The position numbers and the translations under genes are program-made. The notes below the pieces were generated by a model. It made no database searches. It was not told where the DNA came from and saw only the letters and a program-made list of their open reading frames with translations. Shown one piece after another: positions 11,985 through 63,877 of a DNA stretch of 64,000 bases (within the stretch, counting starts at the first letter, position 1; every line of letters starts with the position of its first letter). Source of the DNA: Microcaecilia unicolor (lineage: Eukaryota); assembly GCF_901765095.1 (NCBI RefSeq), contig NC_044044.1, forward strand, positions 26,632,132-26,696,131, written 5' to 3'.

Positions 11985-12039
11985 CTGAAAGAACACAGCA
12001 AAATGAAAAGTTAGTTACTGAGAAAACTAGCACTGGGAA

Positions 12040-12430: not shown

Positions 12431-12465
12431 GTCCTGGTGTTTGCATCTCCAGGTCCTGCTCTCAC

Positions 12466-26525: not shown

Positions 26526-26799
26526 TTATACAATATCCATGAACATCTCTCTTCAGTAAATTCATTAGCAATCCCTGAAAACTTGAGCAGGTTGACCTAT
26601 GGGGACCGGAGGTTACCCACCCCTGTTTCCCACCCACCCACCCACCCCCACACACACATTGACCTACCATTTCTTCTGCTATTTCCAGATCCACTTGTGG
26701 GGGGGGGGGGGCACAAGACAGTTTAACAGGGGGCAAAAGAAGAAGCATCATCTCTGTCTTGAGGAGCTCCATTACATAGTGACAGAGCACAGGGAGATA

Positions 26800-27010
26800 A
26801 CGTGACTCCCCTAGGGTCACAGTGAATCAGCGACAGAGGTGGGGATTAGAACTGAGGCACAAGAAGAGATAGTGCATGTCCCCCAGGATCACACACAGAG
26901 AGCCAGTGACAGAGCTGGGGAACAGGACCGACTCCCCTAGGATTATACACAGTCAGTAGAGCTGAGGCACAGGGCGATAAAGTGACCTCTCCAGGATTTA
27001 CATAGTGGCA
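26800..27010 (-). repeat. Three tandem units of about 60 bp of a MIR-core-like motif (the same family as the 31130-31690 array, in opposite orientation)
   Basis: ggggattagaactgaggcacaagaagagatagtgcatgtcccccagg... recurs. It is the reverse complement of cctgg.gaagtcactttatctc.ctgtgcctcagttctaatcccc. Confidence 0.6.
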
Positions 27011-27229
27011 GAGCCGGGGATTACTGTCAGGTGGACTCTTAAAGATAAAAAGTACTGCTATTATCAGGCTACACCAACATTTCATTCCTCATGGTGGAAT
27101 ATAATTGAAAATGCCCTGAAAATAAGAAAACACCGCTGACATCAGTAGCCTGGGGGATCAGGACCTCTTATATAAATGAGACACCAGTCTTCTACTCAGA
27201 ATGTCAAGCAACTTTTTTAATTTAAATAT

Positions 27230-27441
27230 ATTTTCAATTAATTTGCAAATTATTCATTTTTTATTTGTTTTATTATTTTTTTTTATTATCCTGGATGCTA
27301 CAGACAAAACATTTTAATTTTGTTTTTTAAAAAAATCCACATTTTAAAATATTACGGACCACCTTACAATTCACCTGCTGAGAAAACTTTTTTTTAAAAG
27401 TTTTAAAAAGTTCGCTTTAAATAACTATAAAATTCACAGGG

Positions 27442-27477
<36 letters not shown>

Positions 27478-31129: not shown

Positions 31130-31690
31130 TTGCTGCCAGAGGAAAGATTGTTTCTAATCCCCGGCTCTGTCACTGACTCTCTTGTGTGACCTGCGGAAGT
31201 CACTTTATCTCTCTGTGTCTCAGTTTTAATCCTCGGCTCTGTCACTGACTCTCTGTATGTGACCTGGGGGAGTTACTTTATCTCCCTTTGCCTCAGTTCT
31301 AATCCCCGGCTCTGTCACTGACTCTCTTGTGTGACCTGGGGAAGTCACTTTATCTCTCTGTGACTCAGTTCTAATCCCCGGCTCTGTCACTGACTCTCTT
31401 GTGTGACCTGGGGAAGTCACTTTATCTCTCTGTGCCTCAGTTCTAATCCCCGGCTCTGTCACTGACTCTCTGACCTGGGGGAGTTACTTTATCTCCCTTT
31501 GCCTCAGTTCTAATCCCCGGCTCTGTCACTGACTCTCTTGTGTGACCTGGGGAAGTCACTTTATCTCCCTTTGCCTCAGTTCTAATCCCCGGCTCTGTCA
31601 CTGACTCTCTTGTGTGACCTGGGGAAGTCACTTTATCTCTCTGTGCCTGAGTTCTAATCCCTGAGTGTGATCCTGGGGGAGTCTCTCTTT
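31130..31690 (+). repeat. Tandem array of about 60-62 bp units, about 9 copies, derived from a MIR-type SINE core
   Basis: The unit is ccccggctctgtcactgactctcttgtgtgacctggggaagtcactttatctctctgtgcctcagttctaat. Compare the mammalian MIR core ...gtgaccttgggcaagtcacttaacctctctgagcctcagtttcc. Minus-strand ORFs (31226..31462, 31443..31631) with reiterated TEPGIRTE peptides are artefacts. Confidence 0.75.
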
Positions 31691-33216: not shown

Positions 33217-33439
33217 GGGATTGAAATCCCAACTTTATCTTTCCTTAAAAAAATACTCTGATTATTTACAGTCTTGTATTGGATGACATGTTCCAGCGTT
33301 GAATAGCAGGCTTTGTGTAATCCGAGTTTTAGTAGAATATAAAACTGCTCTAAAGATTATAAAGCAATGTCAGGTGATGTATGACAGAGCTGTGGCTGTA
33401 TCAGAAGCCCCCCCCCCCCCCATCTCCTCCACTGCCCTT

Positions 33440-34148
33440 TCTCCCCCCAGTATTGGGTGTTATTAGGAAAGGTATGGAAAACAGGTGTGAGGATGTTATA
33501 ATGCAGTTGTATCGCTCCATGGTGCGACCGCACCTTGAGTATTGTGTTCAATTCTGGTCGCCGCATCTCAAGAAAGATATAGTAGAATTGGAAAAGGTGC
33601 AGCGAAGGGCGACTAAAATGATAGCGGGGATGGGACGACTTCCCTATGAAGAAAGACTAAGGAGGCTAGGGCTATACAGCTTGGAGAAGAGACGGCTGAG
33701 GGGAGACATGATAGAGGTATATAAAATAATGAGTGGAGTGGAACAGGTGGATGTGAAGCGTCTGTTCACGCTTTCCAAAAATACTAGGACTAGGGGGCAT
33801 GCGATGAAACTACAGTGTAGTAAATTTAAAACAAATCGGAGAAATTTTTTCTTCACCCAACGCATAATTAAACCCTGGAATTCGTTGCCGGAGAACGTGG
33901 TGAAGGCGGTTAGCTTGGCAGAGTTTAAAAAGGGGTTAGACGGTTTCCTAAAGGACAAGTCCATAAACTACTACTAAATGGACTTGGTAAAAATCCACAA
34001 TTTCGGGAATAACTTGTATAAAATGTTTGTACGTTTGGGAAGCTTGCCAGGTGCCCTTGACCTGGATTGGCTGCTGTCGGGGACAGGATGCTGGGCTCGA
34101 TGGACCTTTGGTCTTTTCCCAGTATGGCATTACTTATGTACTTATATG
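33440..34148 (+). mobile_element. CR1 LINE, 5'-truncated 3' portion (ORF2 C-terminal region plus 3' UTR)
   Basis: ORF 33381..33977 reads ...[95 protein letters not shown]...[50 protein letters not shown], the canonical CR1 ORF2 C-terminus. The 3' UTR is ...ttgccaggtgcccttgacctggattggctgctgtcggggacaggatgctgggctcgatggacctttggtcttttcccagtatggcattacttatgtacttat. Confidence 0.85.
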
Positions 34149-36065: not shown

Positions 36066-38466
36066 ATGGCTTCAAGATCCCTGACCCCAAGCCCATCTTC
36101 TGACTCAGACAAAGAGCTTGCTGCTGGCATCACCCTTCCTCTAGGTGCTTCACACCAACAGGATCCTGTTACTCCTCCACCCCACATCTCTCTGCCTCCA
36201 GTGGAGAGAGACTGTCTTCATCTATTGCAGCAAGACTGTTCTTCCTTGATGCCAAGAGACTGCCTTTCTCCAGTTCAGAGAGACAATTTATCACCCAGAA
36301 ATAAATGTTCTTCATCTACATCAAAGGAAAACCCTTTATCTCAACTAGAAGAATGTTCTTCAGTTATTCCAAGAGACTCTCCTCCTTCAGTCCAGTGGGT
36401 TAGCCCTCCTCCAATGCCAGACTCTTTGTTATCCATACAGAGAGATCATTTATCTCCGGTAAAGATGGACAGTCCTGCAAGACACAGGAATTGTTCTTTG
36501 GCAATGCAAAGAGATTGTCCTTCTGTAATCCAAGAAAGCTGCACTTCCCTGCATCAAGTCTGTCTGTCTCCAGTGCGTAAAGGAAGTTCTCCTCCAAGAG
36601 ACTGCTCTTTATCAGTGGAGAGAAACTGTCCATCCCCAACACAGATGGAATGTCTTGGTCCAGTACAAAGAGATTGCTCTTTATCAATGGAGAGGGACTG
36701 TCCTTCCACACTACAGAGGGACTCACCTCTTATCCAGCATCTCAGTCCTTCCCCTCCCTGTCTGACGCCTCCCTCTCAGCCAGCCTCTCCTGACCATGCC
36801 TTTGTTGCACTGAACCCTGTTGCCACTGCTTCCCATGTTCCCGTGACCTCTCTACCCCTGGATGAGGTCCTCCATGAGCTGGCTTTCAACGGTGAGCTAG
36901 ACCTTCAACGCTACTCCAATGGCCATGCCCCATTAGCAACAGATGGAGCAGAAGAGCGTGGGCAGGAGGCACGTAAGTACCAGTGCCCAGTTTGTGGCAA
37001 GCGCTTCCGTTTCAACAGCATCCTCTCTCTGCACACACGCATTCACACTGGGGAGAAGCCCTTCCAGTGTCCCTACTGTGGTCACCAGGCCACTCAGAAA
37101 GGCAACCTGAAGATCCATCTGCGCACCCATCAACCTGGTGGTGACGAAGTGGTCAGTGAGGAGACCCGGTTGCTGCTGGAGCTGGAGGAGAGAGCACTCC
37201 TGAGAGAACAGCGCAACCAAGGAATGTCAAGACAGTGGAAGCACCCGTCATGGCTACTGGAGGTAAAGACACCGATGGTGGCCAAAGAGAAACCCGAGAT
37301 TCTGCCAGCTCCTCAAGACGAAGAAGAGGAGGAGGAAGAAGAGGAGGACGAGGAGGAGGAGGTGGTGCAAATCCCGATCCCTGTTACCCCTCCCTCACTA
37401 CCACCTCCGGGATTCCGCTGCCCATTCTGCAAAGGAAAATTCCGGAAGGCCCGGGAGCTGGAGAAGCACGTTCATATTCTCCATAAGCCCTACCGGTGCA
37501 CGATCTGTGGATTTGCAGCCACCCAGGAAGAAGGCCTGGCACGGCATGCAGAAGAAGTGCACCCAGTGAGGGAGGAGGAAGCAGTCGTTGAAGTTGGTGA
37601 GCCAGTGCAAGTAGCACCGCCGACTACACCGGTAAAGGCAGAACCACCAGTAGCAGAATTCCGTTGTGAGGTGTGCAGCCAAGCCTTCACTCAGTCGTGG
37701 TTCTTAAAGGGCCATATGAGGAAACACAAAGATTCTTTTGACCACAAGTGCCAAGTATGTGGGAGATGCTTCAAGGAGCCCTGGTTCCTGAAGAACCACA
37801 TGAAGGTCCACCTTAGTAAACTAGGGCTGAGGGGGGACAAGACCACAGCATCAGAGGTCTCCACATCCAGACCCAAGAAGGAGCAGGATCTTCTGGGATA
37901 TGACACCTTCTACTCAGCTTTCCTGCTTTCTGCCAGCCAGGAGAAGAGGGAGCAGCTGGTGAGTGTGGCAGAGAAGGGCTCCTTCTTGGGGTACCTCAGC
38001 CTACGGTCCCCCTCTGATGGGAGCTGCACAGAGAGGCTGCAGGCCACAGCCAGGGCCCTGGAGGTGGGCCAGGGGCAGGTTTGGCATCCACCAGGACTGG
38101 AGCCTTCAGAAGTCTGCTGGGTGAGCGGCAAGGGAAAGCAGAAGCGGAAGGGCCACTCCAGGAGGCCCAAGGACAAGAGATCCCAGGTAGGCCCGGCAGG
38201 ACTTTGTGATGGGCCTTCGAAAAATGAGGAATTTGGGGGCACTTGCCGCTGTCTTGAATGTGGTAGAACGTTTGGGAACTACCAGCAGTTGGAGGCCCAT
38301 ACTGCAATGGGTCATCATACCACCAGGGAGGAAGAGGAGTGGGCTGGGAGAGGGGCCTCAAGAACTTCCCATGCCAGTCACAACGGAGGCCACGGAGTGG
38401 GAGGCCACAGTGGAGCTGGAAGAGGAGCAGCGCATGGGGTGTCCCTGCAAGCAGGAAGATTCCCAG
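36066..38466 (+). CDS. ZNF219: ZNF219-like C2H2 zinc-finger protein, first coding exon. It contains the N-terminal repeat region, an ELDLQRYSNG block, six or seven fingers and an acidic tract.
   Basis: ATG at 36066 follows directly after an acceptor (ctgcag|atcATGG) and has a strong Kozak context. Diagnostic blocks match what I recall of human ZNF219: NGELDLQRYSNG, YQCPVCGKRFRFNSILSLH, ETRLLLELEERALLRE, FRCPFCKGKFRKARELEKHVHILH, and FRCEVCSQAFTQSWFLKGHMRKHKDSFDHKCQVCGRCFKEPWFLKNHMKVH. The donor CAG|GTATCA at 38466/38467 leaves phase 1, matching exon 2. An alternative donor at 38186/38187 is not phase-compatible. Confidence 0.85.
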
Positions 38467-38649
38467 GTATCAAAGCAGTCTGTCTGTCTGTCTGTCTTCA
38501 CTCTTCCTGTACCTCTCTGAATCTGTCTTCTGATTTCTCTTGTAATACTATTTCCTTGTACCATAATGGTGACATTATTTTCTGGGTTAAAATATTTATT
38601 TATTTATTTGGCATACTTGATACCGCCCAGTGGCCTACATAGAGACTTC

Positions 38650-39600
38650 TAAGGGGTTAACGATTAAAAAATAATAATATGTGTAGGGAGATAGGGATGA
38701 AAGAGGATCCAACCATAACTGAAAAATTTGAAAATGTGTGGGGTATCATAGATCTACAGGGGAGAGGGATATCTAAACTTTATGATTATATTAGGGGAGG
38801 GGACTTTGTAAAATTACCGTACATGAAGGCGTGGGAGAGGGATCTGGATACTGAATTGACTGAAATAGATTGGAGGCGAATTTGCTTAGAGGCCAAGAAA
38901 GCATCTATATGTGTTCTTATCAAGGAGAATGCATATAAGGTACTGAGCAGATGGTACTTCACACCGGATAAAATAAAAGCAATGTTTCCAGATGCCTCAG
39001 ACACATGTTGGAGATGTAAGAATGGGAGGGGAACATATTTCCATATTTGGTGGGAGTGTCCGGTACTACAGGTATTTTGGGGGGAAGTAACAGGATCACT
39101 AACTACAATGTTGGGCAGTACGGTTCCATGTGATCCTAAGTGGTGCTTGTTGGGTTGGGGCACTAGGAGGGGGAAGAGATGGCAATGCAGACTAAAACGA
39201 ATGGGTATGGCTGCGGCGAAAGCTATGGTGGCCTTAAATTGGAAACAAACAAAGGGCCCCACGGGGAAGGATTGGGTGGAGAGGCTTAAGATAATAGCGG
39301 CTATGGAAAAGATGACGGACAGGCGTAGAGGGAGATATTGTTCCACTGCTGACGAATGGACGCAATTGGAGACACTCTTTACTGGGAACATAGAGAGTAG
39401 GACTGTTTAAGCTACAGTTTTGAAGGGTGGGGGGGGAGGGAGGGGGGGGTTGGAGGGGGGGAGGGCGAAAACACTTGTGGAACTGGACTGAAGTTTACCT
39501 GGTTGGAAAGTTGGGGGAGTCATGGGCTCCAAACTGTTGTTACATTGATTGATGTTCAATAAAAATTTATAAATTAAAAAAAAATAATAATAATAATAAA
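38650..39600 (+). mobile_element. L1 LINE 3' fragment (ORF2 C-terminal Cys-rich domain, 3' UTR, AATAAA, poly-A), in ZNF219 intron 1
   Basis: ORF 38679..39410 contains ...CWRCKNGRGTYFHIWWECPVLQVFWGEV..., the L1 ORF2 C-terminal CWRC...HxxWxCPxLQxFW motif. It is followed by ...ttcaataaaaatttataaattaaaaaaaaataataataataaaat. Confidence 0.8.
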
Positions 39601-48445: not shown

Positions 48446-49055
48446 ACAAGTTACATAAGTACATAAGTATTGCCATACTGGGAAAGACCAAAGGTCCATC
48501 GAGCCCAGCATCCTGTTTCCAACAGTGGGCAATCCAGGTCACAAATACCCGGCAAGATCCCAAAAATGTACAAAACATTTTATACTGCTTATCCCAGAAA
48601 TAATGCATTTCCCCCAAGTCCATTTAATAATGGTCTATGGACTTTTTCTTTAGGAAGCCGTCCAAAACTTTTTTTTTAAGTCCGCTAAGCTAACCGCCTT
48701 TACCACATTCTCTGGCAACGAATTCCAGAGTTTAATTACACGTTGAGTGAAAAAATATTTTCTCCGATTCGTTTTAAATTTACTACTTTGTAGCTTCATC
48801 GCATGCCCCCTAGTCCTAGTATTTTTGGAAAGCGTAAACAGACGCTTCACATCTACCCGTTCAACTCCACTCATTATTTTATAGACCTCTATCATATTTC
48901 CCCTCAGCCGCCTTTTCTCCAAGCTGAAGAGCCCCAGCCGCATTAGCCTTTCCTCATAGGGAAGTCGTCCCATCCCCTTTATCATTCTCGTCGCCCTTCT
49001 CTGCACCTTTTCTAATTCCAGTATATCTTTTTTGAGATACGGCGACCAGAATTGT
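48446..49055 (-). mobile_element. CR1 LINE, 5'-truncated 3' portion, on the minus strand
   Basis: ORF 48650..49006 reads [115 protein letters not shown]. The 3' UTR at 48446-48560 is the reverse complement of ...ctggattgcccactgttggaaacaggatgctgggctcgatggacctttggtctttcccagtatggcaatacttatgtacttatgtaac. It sits within flanking aaggataaa.ccc.tcccctc...acagatgagttacac repeats. Confidence 0.85.
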
Positions 49056-49993: not shown

Positions 49994-50009
49994 ATGAGCA
50001 ATCTGCCAG
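49994..50009 (+). CDS. Candidate initiator micro-exon of the NLRP-like gene, encoding MSNLP plus one base (speculative)
   Basis: The context is gaggaccATGAgc and the donor is CCAG|GTAAAC. The leftover single base plus the first two bases of the next exon give Val, producing MSNLPVASRVLDGFSDLQLRRL..., a plausible PYD N-terminus. It is supported only by phase and consensus, not by homology. Confidence 0.25.
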
Positions 50010-51263
50010 GTAAACGTTATTGCTGAGTGTTCTTCAGCGCTGACAGTCATACCCTAGGTAGGAGAATATAGGGCACCCCCAAGAAGCTGATCCAAATTGA
50101 AAACCTCCCTCTTCCCATCCACACAGCAGCCTCCAGTGTTTGGCTAGTTCAATAAAAGAGCAAATCCCTTGACCCTGTTGGTTGACCATTTTTTTTCTGG
50201 TCCCTTTCCCCGAGGGTGTTGGATCCAATTCCTTGGACCACACCACACCAATTAGAATCTCAGTCAATTAATTCAAATCTAACTGAAGTTAATAACCCAG
50301 TGATCACCTCCAGCAATTTTCATACTGAAACAAAAAAAAAAAGTGTTGTTATAGTCTCGTGACCTGGAGCCATCCACCTCTTCGCCTTCAAAATGGGAGC
50401 TCTGGTATGGCCCACCTCACATGACAAATGCGCTGGGCGGTTTCTGGGGTACACCCTATTTTCCTCTCCTGTTCTCTCTCTTTGAGGGGAGGAAGAGGGA
50501 GATACCGCCATGAAAGGAAGGGACTGGCCCCAGCTCTTAATAAAACCCGTAAACTATGCAGCAGGTATGCATGCCAGCTCAGAAACAGAGTAGGCATAGT
50601 GTTGAAAGAAAACTTAAGGGGGGGGGTGTGCATATTCAAAGTTAGTTTACCAGGTTGCAGAACTGCAGTTGACTGGGGCCACTGAAAATCATTGCAAGAC
50701 TCTGGGATTATTATCTCCCCCTCCTCGCCCCCCCCCCCCCCCCCCCCAGTTTGCAGACTGAATATGTTCCTAACCAGCTAAGTAGTGGCTCTGCCTAAAA
50801 TCTGCCCCCTAGACCACCCCTAAACTAGCTAGTTAGGGAATGGCCAGATAGTGCCGATATTCAGTGACCGGCCAGCTCAGTGAGGTTTAACTGGGCAGGA
50901 GCCGTTCCTGCCCAGTGAAGCCCCTTTGAATATTGACCCCTTCCAATACGTATCTGGTTTTCATTTTCCTACACAGTGTACATGTTGTGTGTATTTCCAT
51001 CCCATAATCACATCCTAATTCCACATACACCTGTCCCCCTCACCACTGTTCACCTTCTAAACACACCTTTCCATATCCTGCATTCATCCCACAGTATAAG
51101 GCAAGCTCCAAGTAGACTCTTCAGCTTGGAAACAGTCATGGTACTAATCGCGCCTTCATCTCATGGTGCATTCTTCATGGGTCCTGGTCTCCAGTTTGAG
51201 GACCATTTTTTTCTTGGACAATGACAGGTCTTGGGTGTTTCTCCTTGGCTCTCTTTCTTACAG

Positions 51264-51418
51264 TAGCCTCCAGGGTCCTGGATGGGTTCAGCGACCTACA
51301 GCTGCGCCGACTGACGATGCTGTACTGCCAACGGCTGGAGGATGCTACGGCAGAAGTCGCATGTGCTGTGGCATTCAGTCTCTACGCCAAGACCGTCATA
51401 TCCAAACTGGAATACGAG
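51264..51418 (+). CDS. NLRP-like gene, exon encoding the first half of an N-terminal death-fold (PYD-like) domain: (V)ASRVLDGFSDLQLRRLTMLYCQRLEDATAEVACAVAFSLYAKTVISKLEYE
   Basis: A strong polypyrimidine tract and acceptor precede it (ctccttggctctctttcttacag|). The donor is GAG|GTGTGT in phase 0. The LxxLxDxxLKKFKxxL-like pattern (LDGFSDLQLRRLTMLY) resembles PYD helix 1-2. The exon joins in frame to the next exon. Confidence 0.5.
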
Positions 51419-52563
51419 GTGTGTCTGTCTATCCCTCTCCATGGAGGGCTATAAAATCTGCTACGTGCATATCTGTGAAGATATCTGCTACGAACAGAGG
51501 TTAATAAACACACAAAAAAGGTCCCCCCTCCCAAGGTGGTGTATGAGATGTGGCCAACACTTTGGTGGGTTGATAGATAGAACCAATGAATAGATAAATG
51601 GATAGACTGATGAACAGCCATCTCTCTCTGGAGTGGAGTAATAGACTTTTCCACTGTTAACCTGTATACGTGTCGATCATTTCGAGGTGTGCATTTAGTT
51701 AACTATTTCAGTTTGGAAATTTTTTTTGTATGTAAAGAATACACACTGAATTGACTACACAATACAACCTCCAAAATAATATATGCAATAAGCTTTTAGC
51801 ACATCAATGACATTTTACACAGATTAATTTTCAAAAAGAACCAAAAAGTGCCTGAAAATAAACCAAAAAATGCTAAAAATGATGTAAAAATGAACCAAAC
51901 TTTTTTCTATGAATTACCCTATCATTTATCCATTCATATTCAGGGTGTAATACAAGATGCATCCACTCTGTCTCTTCATCCAACCATCTACCTCTGACGC
52001 AGAGTGGAAGATATGACCAATGTCTGTCCAGCGTAGAGTGTGAGGTGAATCCAAGGATTCACCCACCCTCCTGTCTCTGGGACAGAGTATGAATTGTACT
52101 GTGTCAGTCTGTCCATCCATGTCTTTAGATTCAGTGTAGTGGTTCCAGTCTCTCCCTGTATCTAACTACCTCTAGGATGAAGTTCAAGATATGTCCACTG
52201 TCCATTCTCCAAGGTTGAGAAAGAAGTGTCTGTAATACATATATCCATCTGTCTCCAGAGCACTGTATGAGATGTATCCAATTTCTGTCCATCCATCTGT
52301 TTTGCTTTCTCGGAAGTAGTATGAAGCTTATCAAATATCTGTTTCTTTACTCTGAATCTGGGGGACATTGGTGGTTCATAATCAAATTTTTTCAGTTCCC
52401 CAAAATCTTACTTCAGATCCCACCAGCTTGGTCCTCTCCTCTCCTAAATCATGTCTCAAACTGGACCCCACCATCAACATGGAGAGGACCCTGCTTTTGG
52501 AAAATAAGAGAGTATAATATTAATTCATGTGTCCCTTCTTTCCCCTCCCACCTTTCCCCACAG

Positions 52564-52732
52564 CAAATCACTGGTGCTGATGGTGACAAAGCGTCACAGC
52601 TCCTACTGAAGACAGTGCTGTCCAAGGAGGATGCCAAAGCTGCCCGAGCCATGTGGCAAAGCTTCACAGACTTCAGGGAAAACAATGCTTTTCTGAAGGT
52701 GAAAAGGATCCTACAGGAGATTGACGACAAGG
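52564..52732 (+). CDS. NLRP-like gene, exon encoding the second half of the PYD-like domain: QITGADGDKASQLLLKTVLSKEDAKAARAMWQSFTDFRENNAFLKVKRILQEIDDK(G)
   Basis: Acceptor cctttccccacag|CAA and donor G|GTATGG, leaving phase 1. The pattern ...DLA.LM...G.EEAW.....F..I....L... is typical of pyrin-domain helices 4-6 (compare NLRP3 and NLRP12 PYDs). The phase matches the NACHT exon. Confidence 0.55.
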
Positions 52733-52989
52733 GTATGGACCCCACAAGCATGGTGGAGGGAGAGAGTATCAGGTGGAACCATATCATCTAGTCAACCTAT
52801 AGGTTGATAGGTAACGGAGTTCAAACATGCGTGGGATATGCATAGAGGAATCCTGTGCAGAAGGAATGGATCCTCAGAAGCTTAGCTGAAATTGGGTGGC
52901 GGAGCAGGTGGGGGGAAGAGGGGGTGGTGATTGGGAGGAGAGGATAGAGGAGGGCAGACTTGTACGGTCTGTACCAGAGCCTGTGATGG

Positions 52990-53195
52990 GAGGCGGGACT
53001 GGTGGTTGGGAGGCGGGAAATACTGCTGGGCAGACTTGTATGGTCTGTGCCCTGAAAAGGACAGGTACAAATTCAAGGTAAGGTATACACATATGAGTTT
53101 GTCTTGGGCAGACTGGATGGACCATGCAGGTCTTTTTCTGCCGTCATCTACTATGTTACTATGTATGTTACTATGTTACTATGTATTCGTAAACC
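52990..53195 (+). mobile_element. 3' tail of a second CR1-like subfamily, ending in a (TACTATGT)n octamer microsatellite
   Basis: ...gggcagactggatggaccatgcaggtctttttctgccgtcatctactatgttactatgtatgttactatgttactatgt. A related tail lies at 19615-19675. Octamer microsatellite termini are typical of CR1. Confidence 0.5.
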
Positions 53196-53554
53196 CCATT
53201 CCCCTCTTTGACAGTATCACAATCCTGAGCTTCAAATCCGACTCTGCTGACTTTCAATTCACAGATTGCAGTTATTAAACCCTCTTATTTTGCACTCGAA
53301 CAAATTAATTCTTCCTTGACAACTTGGAAACCTTGGTTTTTGCTCTGATTCCAATTCGTATTGACTATTGCAATGCTGTTCACTTTGGCTCAAATCAGTC
53401 CTCCATAAACTGCAGCTCCTCCAGTGTCCAGATTATTTACTGGAACAATCCGAATGGATCATGTTACTCCGATCCCTACTTGACAACACTGATTTCTAAT
53501 CTCTTTCAGAACAAAACAACAAAAAAAAAAATCAATCAACTAGTTTTAGCGGAG

Positions 53555-53995
53555 TGGAGTGGAACAGGAGTGGAACAGGTGGATGTGAAGCGTCTGTTCA
53601 CACGTTCCAAAAATACTAGGACTAGGGGGCATGCGATGAAACTACAGTGTAGTAAATTTAAAACAAATCGGAGAAAATTTTTCTTCACCCAACGTGTAAT
53701 TAAACTCTGGAATTCGTTGCCGGAGAAAGTGGTGAAGGCGGTTAGCTTAGCAGAGTTTAAAAAGGGGTTGGACGGTTTCCTAAAGGACAAGTCCATAAAC
53801 CGCTACTAAACGGACTTGGAAAACTCCAAAATTCCAGGAATAACATGTATAGAATGTTTGTACGTTTGGGAAGCTCGCCAGGTGCCCTTGGCCTGGATTG
53901 GCCACTGTCGTGGACAGGATGCTGGGCTCGATGGACCCTTGGTCTTTTCCCAGTATGGCATTACTTATGTACTTATGTTCCTTTCCACCCATCAG
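53555..53995 (+). mobile_element. CR1 LINE 3' fragment
   Basis: ORF 53324..53809 ends ...[80 protein letters not shown]. It is followed by the CR1 3' UTR ...gccaggtgcccttggcctggattggccactgtcgtggacaggatgctgggctcgatggacccttggtcttttcccagtatggcattacttatgtacttatg. Confidence 0.85.
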
Positions 53996-55551
53996 CTCCA
54001 TACTACAAGATGGACCTGTGTTTTCACTTTTTGGCCCTGTAGAGTAGTATTCTCTTCTTCAGCACCTGAGAGGGAAACTAAATCAACCCTATTTCAAAAT
54101 GGCTTTGAAAAACTCTCCACTTCAGCATTGCGTATGGCTCTCTGTACTCTGCTCTCCTCCTCCTTTCAGATTCCTTTCCAATATTTCTTTTCTTGTAAAC
54201 CACTTTGCTGTGTCCCTACTCAAGGTTGAAAGACAGTATATGGATTCTTCCAATAAACTAAATTAAATTAATTAATTAAATACAGATTGGAGGGGGTTCG
54301 AGGATGAGAAAGCCAGTGCTTCAATTCATATCTTAGGACCTTGATTTTCAGTCCCAGTCCTTGAAGCTTAAGGGCCACCAACAGGTCAGGTTTTCGGGAT
54401 AAGATAAATTTACATTCCGATGAGGCAATACATGAAATCTCTCTTATGCATATTGATTGTGGATATCCTGAAAACTTGACTGGCTGGATGTGCCCTGAGG
54501 ACTGAGTTGATAAGCACTGCCTTGAGAGAGATCTGCATGTTTACTACCTCCATTATATGTAAATCTCTCTCATGCATATTTATTAGGGGTATCGTGAAAA
54601 CCTTGAGGACTAGGAGTGAAGACCAAGGTCTTTGGAAAAATATCAAAAGCGTAGGCCATAGAATTTCTCAATCCAGTCCTCAAGACCCACCCAGTCAGTC
54701 CGGTTTTCAGGATTTCTACAACAAATATGCCAAAAGCAAGATTTGCATACAAGGGTGGCCAGTGCATGCAAATCTCTCTCATATACATGCATTATGGGTA
54801 TTTTGAAAAGCAGTTTGGCTGTGCGTGCCAGAACGGTAGATGGATGCAAGGAAGGTGAATGGAAAGAGAATGGGCGGTAGAAGGAAAGAAGGAGCGAGAG
54901 AGAGAGATACCAAAAGACTGAGACAGATAGAAATGCATTGATAGAGAACAGGACGTATGAGCAGCATTGTCACCAGGGTTTGTTTTGGATGTTGCAGGAG
55001 ACTCTTTGCATAAGGAGATTAATTGGGCCCCTGATGAGGTTATTCAAGACTGCCTGGTAGGTAAGTGATTTGCACGTAGTAGTAGGGAAACCCTTGGGCA
55101 GGGTTAGGGTTCAGTCAAGGTCATAGGAGCCAACTTTTCAAAATTATTGGGGGTGCTAAGCCCAATGGAAATAATCCCTCCCTGGACACAAACAAGGAAT
55201 TTTTCCAATATTGGGGGTGCTCAAGCACCCACAGCACCCACAGAGTCGGCTCCAATGGTCAAGGTAGCGCTTCAACAAGTCCTTTCTTCAACATCAAGCA
55301 GGCCAGTATGGGCAGGGAGGGGAAGGAGCATAGGTGGGTAAAGAGGGAGCCTGGGTATGAACTGCATCCTTTCCTCATGTGATAATTTCGGGAAAGGGAA
55401 GAGGCAAGAGCCCTCTCCAGCCAGTTAAAGTCCTGTTAGATGAGGTGAGGGGTCTGTGCCACATGTCCAGAAAACAGACAGAAACAGGAAATCATCGCTG
55501 GAAAATAACTATTGTCCTTCTAATAACTATTTTTCCTTTCTTCTGATGAAG

Positions 55552-57277
55552 CCATCCATCGCCAGCACCAAGCGATCCTGAAGGAAAGGAATGCTACCCT
55601 AGCACTAACTTCTTTTCATGGCTGGACGTTGGAGAAGACCTTCCCACTGGACAAACATTTTACAGAGCTGCTCATCATCCCCTCCCTGAGGTACCAGGAG
55701 CAGGTGCAGCATGAGCTCCTTGCCCGTGGACGTGAACACGTTGAATGGCGCAAGCAAACCCTGCGCCGTGAGCTGGAGAAGGTCCGCCATCATGAGATCT
55801 TTGGCACCAGCTTTGGCAAGTGCACTCGCTGCCTTTATGCTGTGATCAGCGGTGTGGCTGGGATTGGCAAGACCACCCTGGTACAGAAAATAGTCCACGA
55901 CTGGGCAGTGGGCAAAATTTATGGGCAGTTCCACTTCCTTTTCCAGTTCAAGTTCCGGGAGCTCAACATCTACCAGGACAGGACCAGTCTCAAGCAGATC
56001 ATCCTAGACTCCTACCCCTACCTAGAGAAAGATCTCAAGAAGGTCTTGGCAAATACCAATAGGATCTTGTTAATTTTTGACGGACTAGATGAATTCCGGG
56101 AGCCGATAATTTTCCCTGACATTCAGGCTAAATCTCCAAACTCACAATCAAAGGGGGCCTCACATCTTTACCCCGAGAGCTGGTGCTCCATTCCGGACAT
56201 TATACGGGCTCTCTTTCAAGGGCAGATGTTGCCGGATTGTTCCGTGCTGGTGACCACACGGCCCACAGCCCTGGAGTCCTTGCAGATGGCACCTGTCCAC
56301 CTCTATGCTGAGATACTGGGCTTCTCTGATGCACAGATCAAAGACTACTTCTTGAAGTTCAACAGTGACACCAAGGTGTCCTTGGAGATGTTAACCTATG
56401 TGGAGGACAATGCCATCCTGTATACTATGTGCTACAACCCATCATACTGTTGGGTAATTTGTTCCTCCCTGGAAGCAACCTTCACCTCACCAAGAGTACG
56501 TGATTGGAGCCCACCCAAGACAATCACCCAGCTATATGCCAACTATATTCATAACATCCTGAAGAATCATTCCAGAGAAGCAGAGGAGCCAAGACAGCTA
56601 CTTCTGAAGACTGGAGAGATGGCCTACATGGGGGTGGCAGAGAAGGTCATTGTCTTCGGTGACCACCACTTCCATCGGTATGGCCTGCAGCCCAGCAACT
56701 TCCTCTCGGGTTTCCTCATGCAGATTCTACAGAAGGAGAACTCCTTGAAGGATGTGGTATACTCTTTCTTTCATCTCACAGTGCAGGAATTCCTGGCGGC
56801 CCTTGCCAAATTCTTCCAAACGCCTACTCCTAAACTGTCCCAGCTGTTGGATGAAACCAGCACCTCCAGGGATGGCCGGTATGAAATCTTCCTCCAGTTC
56901 ATGGCTGGCCTCTCCTGCCCAGCCACCACAGCCCAACTGAAGGACCTGATTGGAGAAGTTCCCCAAGGGAACGTCTGTAAAGTGGTAGACTGGATCAAAG
57001 AGAGGTTTGAAAGTGCCCAGGGCCATAAGATCCAGCTGCTGAACACATTACACTATCTGTTTGAGGCACAGAACAAGGCCCTGGTGCAGGAGACTATGGG
57101 CCAGGTCAGACAGGTGGATTTCAGCTTCCAGGTCATGTCACCTGTAGATTGCTACGTTCTGGCTGTGGTGCTTGGGCCCTGTCAGCAGCTGCAGAACCTC
57201 CATCTTTTCAACTGTTCGATCGAGTCCTGGGGAATGAAGAGCTTGAAGAGCGTGCTACACAAGTGTGTGACTGTAAG
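55552..57277 (+). CDS. NLRP-like gene, large NACHT (NOD) domain exon. It carries a Walker A motif (GVAGIGKTTL), a Walker B region (ILLIFDGLDEF), sensor 1 (LVTTRP), and winged-helix/HD (EILGFSDAQIKDYFLKF, ILYTMCYNPSYCWVICSSL).
   Basis: The supplied ORF 55629..57281 actually begins at a TTG, not an ATG. The frame is open from 55527. I place the acceptor at ...tttttcctttcttctgatgaag|CC, which is phase-compatible with the PYD exon. 55603 is an alternative with the same phase. The donor is AAG|GTAAGG at 57277/57278. The motif order and sequences resemble NLRP3/NLRP12 NACHT domains. Confidence 0.85.
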
Positions 57278-58299
57278 GTAAGGAACGCTGTAAGATTTGA
57301 AACAGTCCAGCTGACCCTTTTGTGTAAAAAGCAGAAGAGCGTTAAATCCATCCACTCCATGACTAAAATCTGCCCTTCTCTATAAGCTAGGGTCTTTTAA
57401 CTTCCCTTTTCAGAACCTAGGGCCTACAATTGACCCTTCTAAAAGCCTGAACCTAAGCTGCCCACCTCCCTTATCAACCAAGGGCCTAAAAACTCTCTCC
57501 CTCTTCAGAACTCGGAATCCAAACTTCTCCCTCTCCAAAGCCATAGTCTAAACAATCTCCCTCCCGTCTTCTGAAACCTGGCCCGCTCCTGAGTGTTGGT
57601 GTATGGAAAACCTGTGAGTATGAGGAAAGGTTATGATGGAGAGTGGAACAGGATAAGGGGCTTTATCAGAGGGGAACAATCTATTCTTCAAGCACCTGCC
57701 AAGGCGACAGTAATAAGTGTTTATTACTGCATAGATCAAGATATGTTGCTGGGGAACAAAGCATCCAAAAATGTCCATTACCAGGAAACAAACTCAGACT
57801 GGAGGGGGGGGGGGGGCTTTCTCTGTTTGTCTGTTTGAAAACATATAAGGGCAGGTCTGCTTTTACCCTACAGACACAGATTCATGCTGGAGGATAGGGC
57901 AGGTCTCCTTTAAACACTGCATCTGCTAATCTAATCCCGCAGAAAAGACAGTTCTCCTTTAACAATGAGCCTAGTTTCAAGGCAGGGCAGGTCTCTTTTG
58001 ACAGCATAGGGGCGATAAGAAACCATGTGCTTTATCACACCAACCTTTGAACCCTTATCCACAGTAAAGACCAGGAAGAACCAGCCTGAACCAAAACCAA
58101 TCAGGAGCCTTGGAAGGGATCACAGAGCACTCTTAAGCCCATCTGATTGGCTCCTGAGAATTAACTTTCTATGATGTCATAAAGCCTTTTTCATTCCTGC
58201 ATTCTGACTGGTTTTGAAGGTGTTAGTCATAATTCACTGGATTGGGTTTATAAAGCCTGAGGGTCATTTGCCTTTGGGTCACACACAGACATTGACAGA

Positions 58300-58800
58300 G
58301 CCGGGGGGCTTAGAACTGAGGCACAGGGAGATAAGTGACTCCCCCAGGAACACACACAGACCCTGCGCTCTAATCCCTGGCTCTTCATTGACTCTCTGTG
58401 AGATAAAGCAACTCCACCAGGGTCACAGCATAGGAAGCAGATAGCCGAAATGAGGATTAGGTCTCAGCAATCTGTAGTATGTTGGACACCTAGAGCCAAA
58501 GTTCCTTGTCTTGTCCTCCTGCTGTTCTCCTAACTTTCAGGCTCCTCTACGGAATTAGAATAAAGGCACAAGGAGATAAGTAACTCCTCCAGCATCACAC
58601 ACAGACCCTGCACTCTAATCCCTGGTTCTTCATTGACTCTCTGTGAGATAAAGCAACTCCACCAGGGTCACAGCATAGGAAGCAGATAGCCGAACTGAGG
58701 ATTAGGTCTCCGCAATCTGTAGTATGTTGGACACCTAGAGCCAAAGTTCCTTGTCTGCTCCTCCTGCTGTTCTCCTAACTTTCAGGCTCCTCTACGGCTC
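58300..58800 (+). repeat. Tandem duplication of about 240 bp (58380-58550 against 58620-58800) of a MIR-core-related segment, in the NLRP-like intron
   Basis: ctctaatccctgg(c/t)tcttcattgactctctgtgagataaagcaactccaccagggtcacagcataggaagcagatagccgaa.tgaggattaggtctc.gcaatctgtagtatgttggacacctagagccaaagttccttgtct...ctcctgctgttctcctaactttcaggctcctctacgg occurs twice at about 97% identity. Confidence 0.8.
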
Positions 58801-58871
58801 AGAAACACCTCAGCCAGACATCACACGGTCCCCATAGAGAGGGATGACCGACTGCCTTTGCTTCTTCGCAG

Positions 58872-58958
58872 GTTGTCACAGAATAGATTGGGAGATCAGG
58901 GGGTGAAACTCCTGTGTGAAGCCCTGAGGAAGCCCGACTGTCAAATGCAGACTCTGGA
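58872..58958 (+). CDS. NLRP-like gene, LRR exon encoding (R)LSQNRLGDQGVKLLCEALRKPDCQMQTL(E)
   Basis: Acceptor cttcttcgcag|G and a perfect GTAAGT donor. This is a ribonuclease-inhibitor-type LRR of the NLRP kind (compare NLRP3 [28 protein letters not shown]). The phase is consistent with the NACHT exon. Confidence 0.7.
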
Positions 58959-59439
58959 GTAAGTAATACACTGTCACCCGCGTGCCCCCTGCCGCCCCAT
59001 AGTGCTATAGGCATCCCTTTTCAAAGACTCAGACAGCTGCATATCCTGCACCCAGGTAGATACAGAAAAATCTAGACACACGTGCAAAAAGAGGGAGAAA
59101 CCGATTACTCTGTAAATCGTATGGAAAGAGAGAGAGAAGATAGTCGAGTATCAAGAGAAATGCAGTCTGAGACCAAGAAGATGTGGCAGAAAGATACAGA
59201 AATATTTCCCATCATCTTGATCAGAAAGAATTTCCAAACACACCTGGACAGGTTGCCTATATGTGTTACATCTTACAAACGCCAGGTGAAAACTCACCAT
59301 GGCTCAGTACGAGCTCGACAGCGATTCTTAGCAGTAAATTTGAGGGACGGAGGTCATACTCCACAAGCCCTGGCTTAGGAGACAGGTTCATTCCTGTCTA
59401 GAAATGCACAACACTAACCCATTTGGAGAAACTGCCCCC

Positions 59440-60470
59440 CCCCCCCCCCAACGGTTTCCATCAAAAGGATTTTATTGAAGATACTACATATGAACAAATC
59501 GCCCGACACAGGCCGTGTTTCGCCCACCAAGGGCTGCGTCAGGGGCTAATTTGAAACCTTTGAGAAGGACCAATTGTAATGCATAATAGGCAAGAAAAAA
59601 CCAGCAGTCAGCAATCCTATTATCTCTAGCGCACACAGATAGATACACCGTTACTGAAGCTAAGGTTTCAAATTAGCCCCTGACGCAGCCCTTGGTGGGC
59701 GAAACACGGCATGTGTCGGGTGATTTGTTCATATACGGTATCTCAGTGGCGTTCCTAGGGGGGGGCGGTGGGTGCGGTCCGCCCCGGGTGCACGCCACCG
59801 GGGAGGTGTCACGCGTGCCTGCTCTCCGTTGTTCGATGCTTCTTCTCTGCCCTGGAACAGGTTACTTCCTGTTCCGGGGCAGAGAAAAAGCATCGAACAA
59901 CAGAGGAAAGGCGCGCGCGCGCGGCACCCCCCTGGCGGCGTGCACCCGGCGGGGGGGAGGGGGTTCCTTCGCGGGGGTGTCGTTTCGTCGGGGGGGGGGG
60001 GGTCTGCGCTGCATCGGGGGGGCGGGGCGCATCGGCGATCCGCCCCGGGTGCCAGCCCCCCTAGGAACGCCATTTCAGTGGTGTATCTATGGGGGGGCAC
60101 GGGGGCCTGGGCCCCCCCCCAAATTGGCTCTGGTGCCCCCAGTTTGGCTGGCAAAGGTCCCCGACCACAACCAGCTGAAGCGTTTATCTGTCCCGTGCTG
60201 GTCTTGCACTTGCCTCGTCTCCTGTTTCCAGTCGCGCCATGCGTGCTCTCATTTTAATGAAACTGAGCATGCCCGCACATGCTCAGTTTCATTAAGACGA
60301 GTGTGCAGTGCGCTACACGCTTCAGCTGGTGGGGGTTGGGGACCCCCACCAGCAAAGGTACCTGGTGGGGCCAGCAGGAGGGGGGGGGTCGGAAGCGGTG
60401 GGGGAGGCAGGCTAAAACGCATACTTTGGGCTCTGGACCACCGAGGTCTGGCTACGCCCCTGGTTTATTT
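59440..60470. repeat. GC-rich compound foldback: several nested perfect or near-perfect inverted repeats and G/C homopolymers, in the NLRP-like intron
   Basis: There is a 75-bp inverted repeat (59484-59560 against 59650-59730: tacatatgaacaaatcgcccgacacaggccgtgtttcgcccaccaagggctgcgtcaggggctaatttgaaacctt). cagtggcgttcctagggggg at 59745 pairs with cccccctaggaacgccatttcagtgg at 60056. A palindrome centred about 59868 reads ctctccgttgttcgatgcttcttctctgccctggaacagg / cctgttccggggcagagaaaaagcatcgaacaacagagg. A palindrome at 60250-60290 reads aatgaaactgagcatgcccgcacatgctcagtttcatt. ccagctgaagcgt at 60170 pairs with acgcttcagctgg at 60318. ORFs of 98-260 aa here are artefacts. Confidence 0.8.
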
Positions 60471-60660
60471 ATGAGGTTTTCTTGTAATGCTGCGAGGCAT
60501 TTTGTTTTTTTGTTTTTTTTTTTTAAAGAAAAGCATCATTTAAAGGTGTGTGTGTACTGGTTACTTACAGATATCCATATCCCTCTGTCCCCACCGTCTC
60601 CCTTCTCTTGTCCTCATTATCCCCCCCTTCCGTCATCCCTTTTCGTCTGTCCCCATCCAG

Positions 60661-60828
60661 GCTCTGGATGGTGAATCTTACGGATGGCTGCGTGGAGGAT
60701 CTCGCCAGTGCTCTGAGCACGAATGTTTCCATCAGAGACCTGAACCTGAGGGATAACGCCTTCACAGACCACTCTGTGCCCACCTTTCTGCACCTCGTGG
60801 AGAACTGCTCCGGGCTCCTTACCATCGA
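60661..60828 (+). CDS. NLRP-like gene, LRR exon encoding LWMVNLTDGCVEDLASALSTNVSIRDLNLRDNAFTDHSVPTFLHLVENCSGLLTI(E)
   Basis: Acceptor ccccatccag|G and donor GA|GTGAGC. The LRR pattern is of NLRP type B/A (L.L..C.LT..C...L..VL..N..L..LDL..N). The phase is consistent. Confidence 0.7.
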
Positions 60829-61049
60829 GTGAGCTGGCCTTCTGTCTGTCTGTCTTTCTGAGTTTAGGCATTTATAGGTGTCTTGGAGGGGTCTTGTGTG
60901 AGAATGTTTATTTATAGAGGGATGTGTGGATATATATTTTTAATGGGTGTTTATGGAAGGGGTATGTGTGTGTATTTAATCGTTTATATTTTTTTGAGTG
61001 CGTGCTTGTGTGGGGGTGTTTCTGTGTATATAAATGTGCATTTACTGTA

Positions 61050-63660
61050 TGTTTTCAAGTAGATGTTTAAGCTCATAGGTTTGAGTGTTTATGGAGGGAC
61101 AGTTGTGTTTTTAGCTGTTTATAGGAGTTTTGTTTTGGGTTGGGGTTTATGTGGGTACTTGTATATAGAGATATGTATATGTTTTAACGAGGGTGTTTAA
61201 GCTCATAGAATCGAGTGTTTATGAAGGGACAGTTGTGTTTTTAGCTGTTTATAGGGTTTTTTTGGGGGGGGAGGGGGTGTTTTTACGTGGGGGTTTGTAT
61301 ATAGAGATATGTATATGTTTTAATGAGGGTGTTTAAGCTCATAGAATCGAGTGTTTATGAAGGGACAGTTGTGTTTTTAGCTGTTTATAGGGTTTTTTTT
61401 GGGGGGGAGGGGGTGTTTTTACGTGGGTGTTTGTATATAGAGATATGTATATGTTTTAACGAGGGTGTTTAAGCTCATAGAATCGAGTGTTTATGAAGGG
61501 ACAGTTGTGTTTTTATCTGTTTATAGGGTTTTTTGGGGGGAGGGGGTGTTTTTACGTGGGGGTTTGTATATAGAGATATGTATATGTTTTAATGAGGGTG
61601 TTTAAGCTCATAGAATCGAGTGTTTATGAAGGGACAGTTGTGTTTTTAGCTGTTTATAGGGTTTTTTTGGGGGGGGGGGGGGGTGTTTTTACATGGGTAT
61701 TTGTATATAGAGATATGTATATGTTTTAACGAGGGTGTTTAAGCTCATAGAATCGAGTGTTTATGAAGGGACAGTTGTGTTTTTAGCTGTTTATAGGGGG
61801 TTTTTTGGGGGGGGAGGGGGTGTTTTACGTGGGTGTTTGTATATAGAGATATGTATATGTTTTAATGAGGGTGTTTAAGCTCATAGAATCGAGTGTTTAT
61901 GAAGGGACAGTTGTGTTTTTAGCTGTTTATAGGGTTTTTTTGGGGGGGAGGGGGTGTTTTAAGTGGGTGTTGTATATAGATATGTATATGTTTTAACGAG
62001 GGTGTTTAAGCTCATAGAATCGAGTGTTTATGAAGGGACAGTTGTGTTTATAGCTGTTTATAGGGTTTTTTTTGGGGGGGGAGGGGGTGTTTTTACGTGG
62101 GTGTTTGTATATAGAGATATGTATATGTTTTTATGTGGGTGTTTAAGCTCATAGAATCGAGTGTTTATGAAGGGACAGTTGTGTTTTTAGCTGTTTATAG
62201 GGTTTTTTTGGGGGGGGGAGGGGGTGTTTTTACATGGGTGTTTGTATATAGAGATATGTATATGTTTTAACGAGGGTGTTTAAGCTCATAGAATCGAGTG
62301 TTTATGAAGGGACAGTTGTGTTTTTAGCTGTTTATAGGGTTTTTTTTTGGGGGGGGGGAGGGGGTGTTTTTACGTGGGTGTTTGTATATAGAGATATGTA
62401 TATGTTTTAATGAGGGTGTTTAAGCTCATAGAATCGAGTGTTTATGAAGGGACAGTTGTGTTTTTAGCTGTTTATAGGGTTTTTTTTGGGGGGGAGGGGG
62501 TGTTTTTACGTGGGTGTTTGTATATAGAGATATGTATATGTTTTAACGAGGGTGTTTAAGCTCATAGAATCGAGTGTTTATGAAGGGACAGTTGTGTTTT
62601 TAGCTGTTTATAGGGTTTTTTTTGGGGGGGGGAGGGGGTGTTTTTACGTGGGTGTTTGTATATAGAGATATGTATATGTTTTAACGAGGGTGTTTAAGCT
62701 CATAGAATCGAGTGTTTATGAAGGGACAGTTGTGTTTTTATCTGTTTATAGGGTTTTTTGGGGGGGAGGGGGTGTTTTTACGTGGGGGTTTGTATATAGA
62801 GATATGTATATGTTTAACGAGGGTGTTTAAGCTCATAGAATCGAGTGTTTATGAAGGGACAGTTGTGTTTTTAGCTGTTTATAGGGTTTTTTTTGGGGGG
62901 GGAGGGGGTGTTTTTACATGGGTATTTGTATATAGAGATATGTATATGTTTTAACGAGGGTGTTTAAGCTCATAGAATCGAGTGTTTATGAAGGGACAGT
63001 TGTGTTTTTAGCTGTTTATAGGGGTTTTTTTGGGGGGGGGGGGGGTTGTTTTTACGTGGGTGTTTGTATATAGAGATATGTATATGTTTTAATGAGGGTG
63101 TTTAAGCTCATAGAATCGAGTGTTTATGAAGGGACAGTTGTGTTTTTAGCTGTTTATAGGGTTTTTTTTTTGGGGGGAGGGGGTGTTTTTACGTGGGTGT
63201 TTGTATATAGATATGTATATGTTTTAACGAGGGTGTTTAAGCTCATAGAATCGAGTGTTTATGAAGGGACAGTTGTGTTTTTAGCTGTTTATAGGGTTTT
63301 TTTTGGGGGGGAGGGGGTGTTTTTACGTGGGTGTTTGTATATAGAGATATGTATATGTTTTTATGTGGGTGTTTAAGCTCATAGAATCGAGTGTTTATGA
63401 AGGGACAGTTGTGTTTTTAGCTGTTTATAGGGTTTTTTTTGGGGGGGGAGGGGGTGTTTTTACGTGGGTGTTTGTATATAGAGATATGTATATGTTTTAA
63501 CGAGGGTGTTTAAGCTCATAGAATCGAGTGTTTATGAAGGGACAGTTGTGTTTTTAGCTGTTTATAGGGTTTTTTTTGGGGGGGGGAGGGGGTGTTTTTA
63601 CGTGGGTGTTTGTATATAGAGATATGTATATGTTTTTATGTGGGTGTTTAAGCTGATAGA
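61050..63660 (+). repeat. Satellite-like tandem array: about 137-bp unit, about 19 copies, about 2.6 kb, each unit containing a T(n)G(n)AGGGGG run. It fills most of the last NLRP-like intron.
   Basis: The unit is gagggtgtttaagctcatagaatcgagtgtttatgaagggacagttgtgtttttagctgtttatagggtttttttgggggggagggggtgtttttacgtgggtgtttgtatatagagatatgtatatgttttaac. Copy starts are spaced 135-140 bp apart from about 61190 to about 63640. A degenerate leader lies at 60880-61190. Confidence 0.9.
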
Positions 63661-63777
63661 TGTTTATGCAGGATGTGTCTTTGTGTGCGCAAACTTGTGA
63701 AGGTTTTTAAAGACGTTTGTGACTCTCTGATACTGTTTTATCACACCCACACAGTTTCTCTTTTCTTGCACTTGCAG

Positions 63778-63877
63778 CCTCTGCAATAATCCATTCAGTG
63801 GAGTAGGCTGCCAGAAGTTGAAATTGTTCGAGGAGAAGTTGAGACGCACCCGGCACGGATTAAAGATTAAAGTCTGA
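63778..63877 (+). CDS. NLRP-like gene, putative terminal exon encoding (D)LCNNPFSGVGCQKLKLFEEKLRRTRHGLKIKV*
   Basis: Acceptor ttgcacttgcag|C in the correct phase. The stop codon TGA is at 63875-63877. The sequence is a plausible LRR C-terminal cap, but there is no independent homology, so the true 3' end could lie elsewhere. Confidence 0.5.

Follow-up and report, generated by a model that had tools for sequence, protein, structure and literature searches.

A probable CARD-bearing, NLRP3-type NLR gene with a short leucine-rich repeat region in the caecilian Microcaecilia unicolor

What kind of NLR protein is encoded near ZNF219 in the caecilian Microcaecilia unicolor, and is its gene peculiar to this lineage? 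The locus spans positions 49994 to 63877 of a 64,000-nucleotide stretch of contig NC_044044.1 (positions 26,632,132 to 26,696,131, forward strand), which is called the window hereafter. A sequence-only reading of this DNA had labeled the gene NLRP-like because of two exons thought to encode a pyrin domain (PYD), and had implied that it lacked annotation. Our analysis indicates that the locus very probably is an intact NLR gene that joins a CARD to an NLRP3-type NACHT module and a short leucine-rich repeat (LRR) region. It is already present in RefSeq as three isoforms (X1 to X3), and it is misnamed there in that the "PYD" of the RefSeq name does not exist.

Gene model and protein domains

The seven exons first listed for this gene all have AG/GT borders, and joining them in frame gives 806 amino acids and a stop. 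Each of these exons is correct, including a micro-exon encoding MSNLP that is the start of RefSeq isoform X2, but a 63-nt linker exon was overlooked. Its 21 residues, GDSLHKEINWAPDEVIQDCLV, fall between exons 3 and 4 and are the sole difference between the 806-residue chain and the RefSeq protein. Translation of the eight-exon chain exactly reproduces XP_030043237.1 (P0001), the 827-residue "NLRP3 isoform X2" of M. unicolor. The linker exon is also kept in Geotrypetes, Rhinatrema, and Pleurodeles, with 88% DNA identity between Microcaecilia and Rhinatrema. Overall the gene has nine exons, with eight per transcript (Table 1), and isoforms X1 and X3 comprise 840 and 811 residues. Isoform X3 (P0122) is without exactly the 29 residues of the 87-nt LRR exon. 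Because the introns flanking the 87-nt and 168-nt LRR exons are all in phase 2, this omission is an in-frame loss of exactly one LRR unit.

The large central exon was initially read as encoding a NACHT domain with Walker A and B, sensor 1, and winged-helix and HD motifs close to those of NLRP3, and on this point Pfam, motif, and PDB searches agree. Pfam calls NACHT well above its cut-off at residues 210-386 of the 806-residue protein (E 2.3e-36, 125.6 bits versus 26.7), and the NOD2_WH (39.9 bits) and NLRC4_HD2 (59.2 bits) matches both exceed their cut-offs. The motifs are intact (827-residue numbering): Walker A GVAGIGKT at 235, Walker B LLIFDGLDE at 307, sensor 1 TTRP at 369, and the winged-helix histidine motif FFHLTVQEF at 540. 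In a sequence search of solved structures, NLRP3 chains rank first (E 2.6e-80), ahead of other NLRPs, ribonuclease inhibitor (at the C-terminus), and NOD2. The scores of this search (NLRP3 274 bits, NLRP2 195, NLRP14 181, NLRP1 171, NOD2 136, NLRC4 24) identify the NACHT module as one of the NLRP type. A full-length model, with a predicted local distance difference test score (pLDDT) of 80 and a predicted template modeling score (pTM) of 0.69, gives a similar picture, as its best fold match is the NLRP3 closed hexamer (E 3e-30), followed by NOD2, NLRP14, NLRP2, and NLRP1. A FISNA-like region also pairs with residues ~159-220 of NLRP3 in a phmmer alignment. The protein therefore carries the parts expected of an NLR, namely a NACHT domain with Walker A/B and sensor 1, a winged helix with HD2, and C-terminal LRRs.

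Structure comparison was needed for the N-terminal domain because sequence alone did not place it, and a profile search of PDB sequences with the N-terminal alignment gave chance-level matches only. The AlphaFold model of this domain, built on an alignment of homologs, is all-helical (pLDDT 87.7, pTM 0.81), and its first helix is broken (16-25 / 27-33). When this model was compared with the PDB by Foldseek, the well-fitting matches were nearly all CARDs, among them those of ARC, caspase-1, Apaf-1, RIP2, RAIDD, NOD1, NLRP1-CARD, and NLRC4. Moreover, among 21 homologous N-termini scanned singly, Pfam recognized CARD in eight (best E 7.5e-5) and CARD_2 in two. Based on the predicted structure and on these Pfam matches of homologs, the N-terminal domain is predicted to be a CARD, and the two exons once called PYD-like are those that encode it. 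By domain nomenclature, an N-terminal CARD is the mark of an NLRC protein. Recognition of the CARD also moves the predicted signaling partner from the PYD of ASC to a CARD protein.

At the other end of the protein, the full-length model has beta-strands at residues 655, 681, 706, 737, 765, 793, and 824 that alternate with six helices at pLDDT values of ~90 or more. The LRR region is thus modeled as about six beta-alpha units of the ribonuclease-inhibitor type. Pfam LRR_6 matches stay under the cut-off, and ribonuclease-inhibitor chains match the C-terminus with E values of 1e-29 to 8e-43. The description of this region as unusually short and of the ribonuclease-inhibitor type stands, but the original estimate of about four repeats is too low according to the model.

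Orthologs of the protein occur in Geotrypetes seraphini (833 residues, 85% identity to the 806-residue protein), Rhinatrema bivittatum (868-870 residues, 82%), and the newt Pleurodeles waltl (816-845 residues, 62%). In a neighbor-joining tree of the NACHT-HD2 region (528 columns, 65 sequences, 100 bootstraps), these four short-LRR proteins form one orthogroup, the longer amphibian paralogs (Pleurodeles 1016 residues, Geotrypetes 969, Rhinatrema 962, Microcaecilia 840) form another group, and the amphibian sequences stand together versus the chondrichthyan ones, each with 100/100 bootstrap support. The gene is one of two amphibian paralog lineages of a CARD-bearing "NLRP3-like" family, and a paralog of the longer lineage with the same CARD is present in Microcaecilia itself.

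Several points weigh against this description of the gene. Pfam calls no CARD on the caecilian protein's own sequence, and FISNA remains below its threshold (E 0.096, 13.3 bits versus a cut-off of 28.1). The gene model and its isoforms are computational RefSeq predictions (XP_ records). Furthermore, the tree holds no mammalian NLRP or NLRC sequences, and placement relative to true NLRPs is outside its scope.

Table 1. Coding exons of the NLR gene, followed by other features of the window
Feature	Positions	Strand	Basis or remark
First coding exon of X2, MSNLP + 1 nt, phase 1	49994-50009	+	ATG, then GT donor; part of exact XP_030043237.1 chain
Alternative first coding exon of X1 and X3, MKGRDWPQLLIKPVNYAA + 1 nt, phase as X2 start	50510-50564	+	Exact peptide match, GT donor
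CARD exon 1, N-terminal helix and CARD helices 1a to 3	51264-51418	+	AlphaFold helices 6-12, 16-25, 27-33, 38-47, 53-60
CARD exon 2, CARD helices 4 to 6	52564-52732	+	
63-nt linker exon	54998-55060	+	AG/GT borders; in RefSeq protein
Large exon, FISNA-like region, NACHT NTPase, winged helix, HD2, LRR units 1-2	55552-57277	+	Pfam, motifs, NLRP3 alignment
87-nt LRR exon, one repeat	58872-58958	+	Size identical in Rhinatrema; skipped in X3
168-nt LRR exon, two repeats	60661-60828	+	Size identical in Rhinatrema; model beta-strands 737-739, 765-767
Terminal exon, last LRR unit, conserved tail (...RHGLKIKV), stop	63778-63877	+	Common to all RefSeq isoforms; conserved in orthologs
p25-alpha (TPPP-family) exon	within 11908-12690	-	
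Tandem array, 66-bp unit x12	21858-22650		
Tandem array, 92-bp unit x18	23492-25170		
Tandem array, 72-bp unit	31152-31661		
Interspersed repeat	33381-33977	+	
ZNF219, 858-codon open reading frame	36066-38642		Further zinc-finger exons up to 42116
243-codon open reading frame	38679-39410	+	Weak zf-RVT match, E 0.005
Interspersed repeat	48650-49006	-	
Interspersed repeat	~53658-53976		
Tandem array, 245-bp unit	58319-58797		
Minisatellite, 136-bp unit, 19 copies	61064-63660		94% matches

Relatives, proposed signaling, and role

Sharks and rays have a greatly expanded set of CARD-bearing "NLRP3-like" proteins, and the family is also found in lungfish. When the CARD profile was searched exhaustively with HMMER against 1.84 billion representatives, only 135 clusters were returned. 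The 20 of these that were sampled by name are shark or ray proteins called "NLRP3/12-like" or uncharacterized, a lungfish NLRP3-like protein, and, weakly, lamprey proteins; no teleost, frog, or amniote is among the 20 names. The close protein matches likewise include no anuran or amniote even though such proteomes are in the collection (many frog ZNF536 proteins were listed), and therefore an annotated ortholog in frogs or amniotes is unlikely. The wider family extends to sharks and lungfish and probably to lampreys. This distribution, together with orthologs of identical exon structure in two other caecilians and a newt, contradicts the proposal that the gene is a lineage-specific insertion. 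Sharks and rays also have many "uncharacterized" proteins of 140-237 residues that consist mainly of this CARD subtype (P0131-P0168, P0291-P0296). In some shark and ray proteins the CARD occurs in two to four tandem copies, as in P0291 (336 residues, three stretches) and P0294 (483 residues, four stretches). The short proteins may act as CARD-only regulators, or their gene models may be fragmentary.

Proteins of this class have been described before. CARD-bearing NLRP3-like proteins are reported for shark, lamprey, and platypus (PMC11258412), and the caecilian protein has the same order of parts, with an N-terminal CARD followed by an NLRP3-type module (FISNA-like region, NACHT, winged helix, and HD2) and LRRs of the ribonuclease-inhibitor type. 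Its membership in that family follows from comparison with shark and ray proteins, in which a homologous CARD (BLASTP E 1e-8 to 1e-14) is joined to an NLRP3-like NACHT, with the NACHT-HD2 region ~49% identical over the trimmed alignment. The same study describes a lungfish relative with "no identified N-terminal domain" (PMC11258412), and the caecilian CARD similarly escapes domain databases. The shark and ray proteins differ in having many more LRRs (900-1380 residues in total length) and in their large lineage-specific expansions, whereas the caecilian gene represents one of only two amphibian lineages and has about six LRRs. PMC8455134 probably deals with the same family under the description "novel NLR family related to NLRPs, expanded in whale shark". 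A 2026 preprint on non-eutherian NLRP3-like genes (10.64898/2026.04.26.720791) set a minimum of 85% coverage of human NLRP3 and treated other amphibian loci; M. unicolor and its gene are not among them. In the literature we found no description of the short-LRR orthogroup.

Given that the class has already been reported, the corrected domain assignment is useful but would bring little surprise to a specialist. With it, non-anuran amphibians and lungfish join the lineages in which CARD-bearing NLRP3-like receptors are retained, which is relevant to the current debate on a pan-vertebrate occurrence of NLRP3. With its conserved LRR region of six repeats, this protein is also a compact natural NLR that could suit structural or reconstitution work.

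Among better-known receptors, NLRP3 of human and mouse (and NLRP12) offers the closest comparison. NLRP3 is the best match of the caecilian protein among solved structures by both sequence and fold, and the FISNA-aligned region, Walker A and B, sensor 1, and the winged-helix histidine are conserved between them. The gene plan is also alike: NACHT is encoded by one large exon, and modular LRR exons come after it. However, the caecilian protein has a CARD instead of a PYD, identity in the Foldseek alignments is ~24%, and NLRP3 has twelve LRR units rather than about six. NLRC4, NOD1, and NOD2 are less similar, in that the caecilian NACHT domain is far nearer to that of NLRP3 than to those of NOD2 or NLRC4. 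The LRR region of human NLRP1 resembles the caecilian one in being short, of the ribonuclease-inhibitor type, and composed of about six repeats, and its crystal chains match residues 689-750 (806-residue numbering; E ~6e-19). NLRP1 differs in that it carries an N-terminal PYD and a C-terminal CARD after a FIIND, and the caecilian protein has no FIIND by Pfam.

A possible mode of action can be drawn from proteins of known structure among the NLRs and other signal transduction ATPases with numerous domains (STAND). The resting NACHT-winged helix-HD2 module would be bound to ADP and autoinhibited. A trigger sensed via the LRR region or the FISNA-NACHT surface might then cause nucleotide exchange and oligomerization. 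Oligomers would cluster the CARDs, which in turn could seed a filament of CARD-CARD contacts with a partner that has a CARD of its own. By analogy with NLRC4, this partner most plausibly would be caspase-1 itself; alternatives might be ASC, contacted through its CARD, or RIPK2. Caspase-1 is present in all vertebrate clades searched in PMC11258412, caecilian included.

It is tempting to speculate further that the gene, at the ZNF219-TEP1 junction, defines a distinct and ancient orthogroup that frogs and amniotes have lost and only caecilians and salamanders retain. Its products would form an ASC-independent, NLRC4-style inflammasome through direct binding of caspase-1 by the CARD, with an NLRP3-type FISNA-NACHT switch as the driver. 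We offer this composite proposal tentatively, and doubt that it holds in full. If it is true, then the protein is a natural hybrid, and neither a PYD nor a long LRR region is needed for signaling by an NLRP3-type sensor module.

Perhaps, instead, the protein is a regulator or adaptor rather than a primary sensor, and caps or seeds CARD filaments or hetero-oligomerizes with the longer paralogs. It would then be comparable to CARD-only proteins or regulatory NLRs. Conservation of the short LRR, the presence in the same species of a longer paralog with the same CARD, and the many shark and ray CARD proteins of 140-237 residues, which hint at a CARD-based regulatory network, are all consistent with such a role. 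However, all NTPase motifs are retained in full, and constraint is strongest in the NACHT, as expected for an active switch. In addition, a short LRR region does not imply that a protein is not a sensor: inflammasomes are formed even by human NLRP1, with about six LRRs, and by NLRP10, which has none. We therefore consider a regulatory role possible though rather unlikely, and favor a sensor with a CARD and an NLRP3-type NACHT module.

Alternative accounts of the gene structure

The window ends only 123 bases past the stop codon, which raises the question of whether the gene model has been truncated, with additional LRR exons past position 64000 and a terminal exon that is alternative or mis-called. 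This is very improbable. The stop was proposed from the outset to be the true end of the gene, and all three RefSeq isoforms use it. Three other amphibians, Geotrypetes, Rhinatrema, and Pleurodeles (isoform X1), have kept the C-terminal tail. In Rhinatrema, the next gene lies on the opposite strand ~1.2 kb past the stop, and therefore there is no room for further LRR exons. Within the introns, tblastn searches with eight relatives, including shark and ray proteins of 1340-1384 residues, revealed no further LRR-like exons.

An equally poor prospect is the architecture originally proposed, in which an NLRP protein with a PYD, a NACHT domain, and a short LRR region would signal by PYD-PYD contact with ASC, its pyrin domain being lengthened by a 27-residue insertion. 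The occurrence of "PYD" in the automatic RefSeq name, the closeness of the NACHT module to that of NLRP3, and the six-helix death fold that PYD and CARD have in common all make this idea understandable. However, the N-terminal pyrin domain that defines NLRPs (PF02758) is absent by Pfam, and Pfam finds no match to any death-fold family in the 113-residue N-terminus, even with the supposed insertion deleted. Foldseek lists no PYD among its 50 matches to the N-terminal model, and none of the 21 homologous N-termini is called as PYD. The supposed insert aligns without gaps with the N-termini of amphibian paralogs and with those of dozens of relatives from sharks and rays, and, because all relatives have this segment, it is not an insertion. 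Both the NLRP-like (PYD) label and the notion of a lengthened canonical PYD thus yield to the CARD assignment.

The short LRR region is a maintained feature rather than a sign of decay. In Rhinatrema (locus L001), exons of 169, 1726, 87, 168, and 100 nt have exactly the sizes seen in Microcaecilia, and the short architecture with its conserved C-terminal tail is common to the Geotrypetes, Rhinatrema, and Pleurodeles orthologs; the Pleurodeles locus spans 735 kb. Between Microcaecilia and Rhinatrema, the ratio of nonsynonymous to synonymous substitution rates (dN/dS, Nei-Gojobori method) is 0.11 overall at a dS of 0.73, with regional values of 0.18 for the CARD, 0.11 for the linker and FISNA region, 0.09 for NACHT, 0.07 for the winged helix and HD2, and 0.14 for the LRR region. 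The short-LRR lineage is under purifying selection in three caecilians and the newt, and therefore the gene is functional. It is most improbable that this is a decaying, lineage-specific NLR copy that has lost most LRR exons on its way to becoming a pseudogene, even though the paralogs (960-1380 residues) have longer LRR regions and a 2.6-kb minisatellite occupies the last intron. The reading frame and all catalytic motifs are intact, three caecilians and the newt retain the short architecture with the same exon sizes, and dN/dS is low both overall and in the LRR region.

Genomic neighborhood and repeats

The placement of the NLR gene beside ZNF219 and TPPP2 was largely borne out. ZNF219 lies upstream, and the best match of its long open reading frame is "zinc finger protein 219" of M. 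unicolor (93% identity); this gene and the NLR gene are on one 56.6-Mb record. An exon for a p25-alpha domain was also found, but it can be placed only to the TPPP family. In Rhinatrema (L001, LR584402.1), positions 20633-29404 encode a 2599-residue TROVE-NACHT-WD40 protein, TEP1-like, which is arranged tail-to-tail with the NLR ortholog. These two very distantly related NACHT genes are thus immediate neighbors. If the TEP1-like gene of Rhinatrema is counted in, the NLR sits between genes whose human counterparts all lie in 14q11.2, a region that is not known to hold an NLR gene. The earlier remark that an NLR is oddly positioned relative to the mammalian block is therefore reasonable. Even so, the gene is not a recent private insertion, because at least two amphibian orders share it. 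No ZNF219 exon was found in the 10 kb upstream of the Rhinatrema ortholog; the link between the two caecilian loci is thus one of gene orthology and not of a common flank. A shark ZNF219-like locus has no neighbor within 10 kb. The neighborhood reported for NLRP3 (ZNF496, OR2B11, and TRIM58; preprint 10.64898/2026.04.26.720791) is not that of the caecilian gene, whose flanks are ZNF219 and a TPPP-family gene (TEP1-like in Rhinatrema).

Repeats are plentiful in the window. The minisatellite noted above fills most of the last NLR intron, and because of it the last 4 kb of the window show a strong GC and AT skew. Three interspersed repeats located around and inside the NLR gene encode nearly the same peptide, which also occurs upstream of the Rhinatrema ortholog (L001 3630-3992). 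Pfam gives no match for this peptide, which we take to resemble the C-terminal end of the ORF2 protein of a CR1-like long interspersed nuclear element. The 243-codon open reading frame between the ZNF219 coding blocks probably represents a piece of a retrotransposon within an intron of ZNF219.

The tandem arrays with 72-bp and 245-bp units have a common motif (CTAATCCC.GGCTCT…TGACTCTCT), which suggests that they belong to a single family resembling short interspersed nuclear elements, locally amplified upstream of ZNF219 and in an NLR intron. Two other arrays, with units of 66 and 92 bp, lie 0.8 kb apart and are of opposite composition, CAC/CAT-rich in one and GTG/ATG-rich in the other, as if they were inverted related repeats. 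Long, spurious, histidine-rich open reading frames arise from both.

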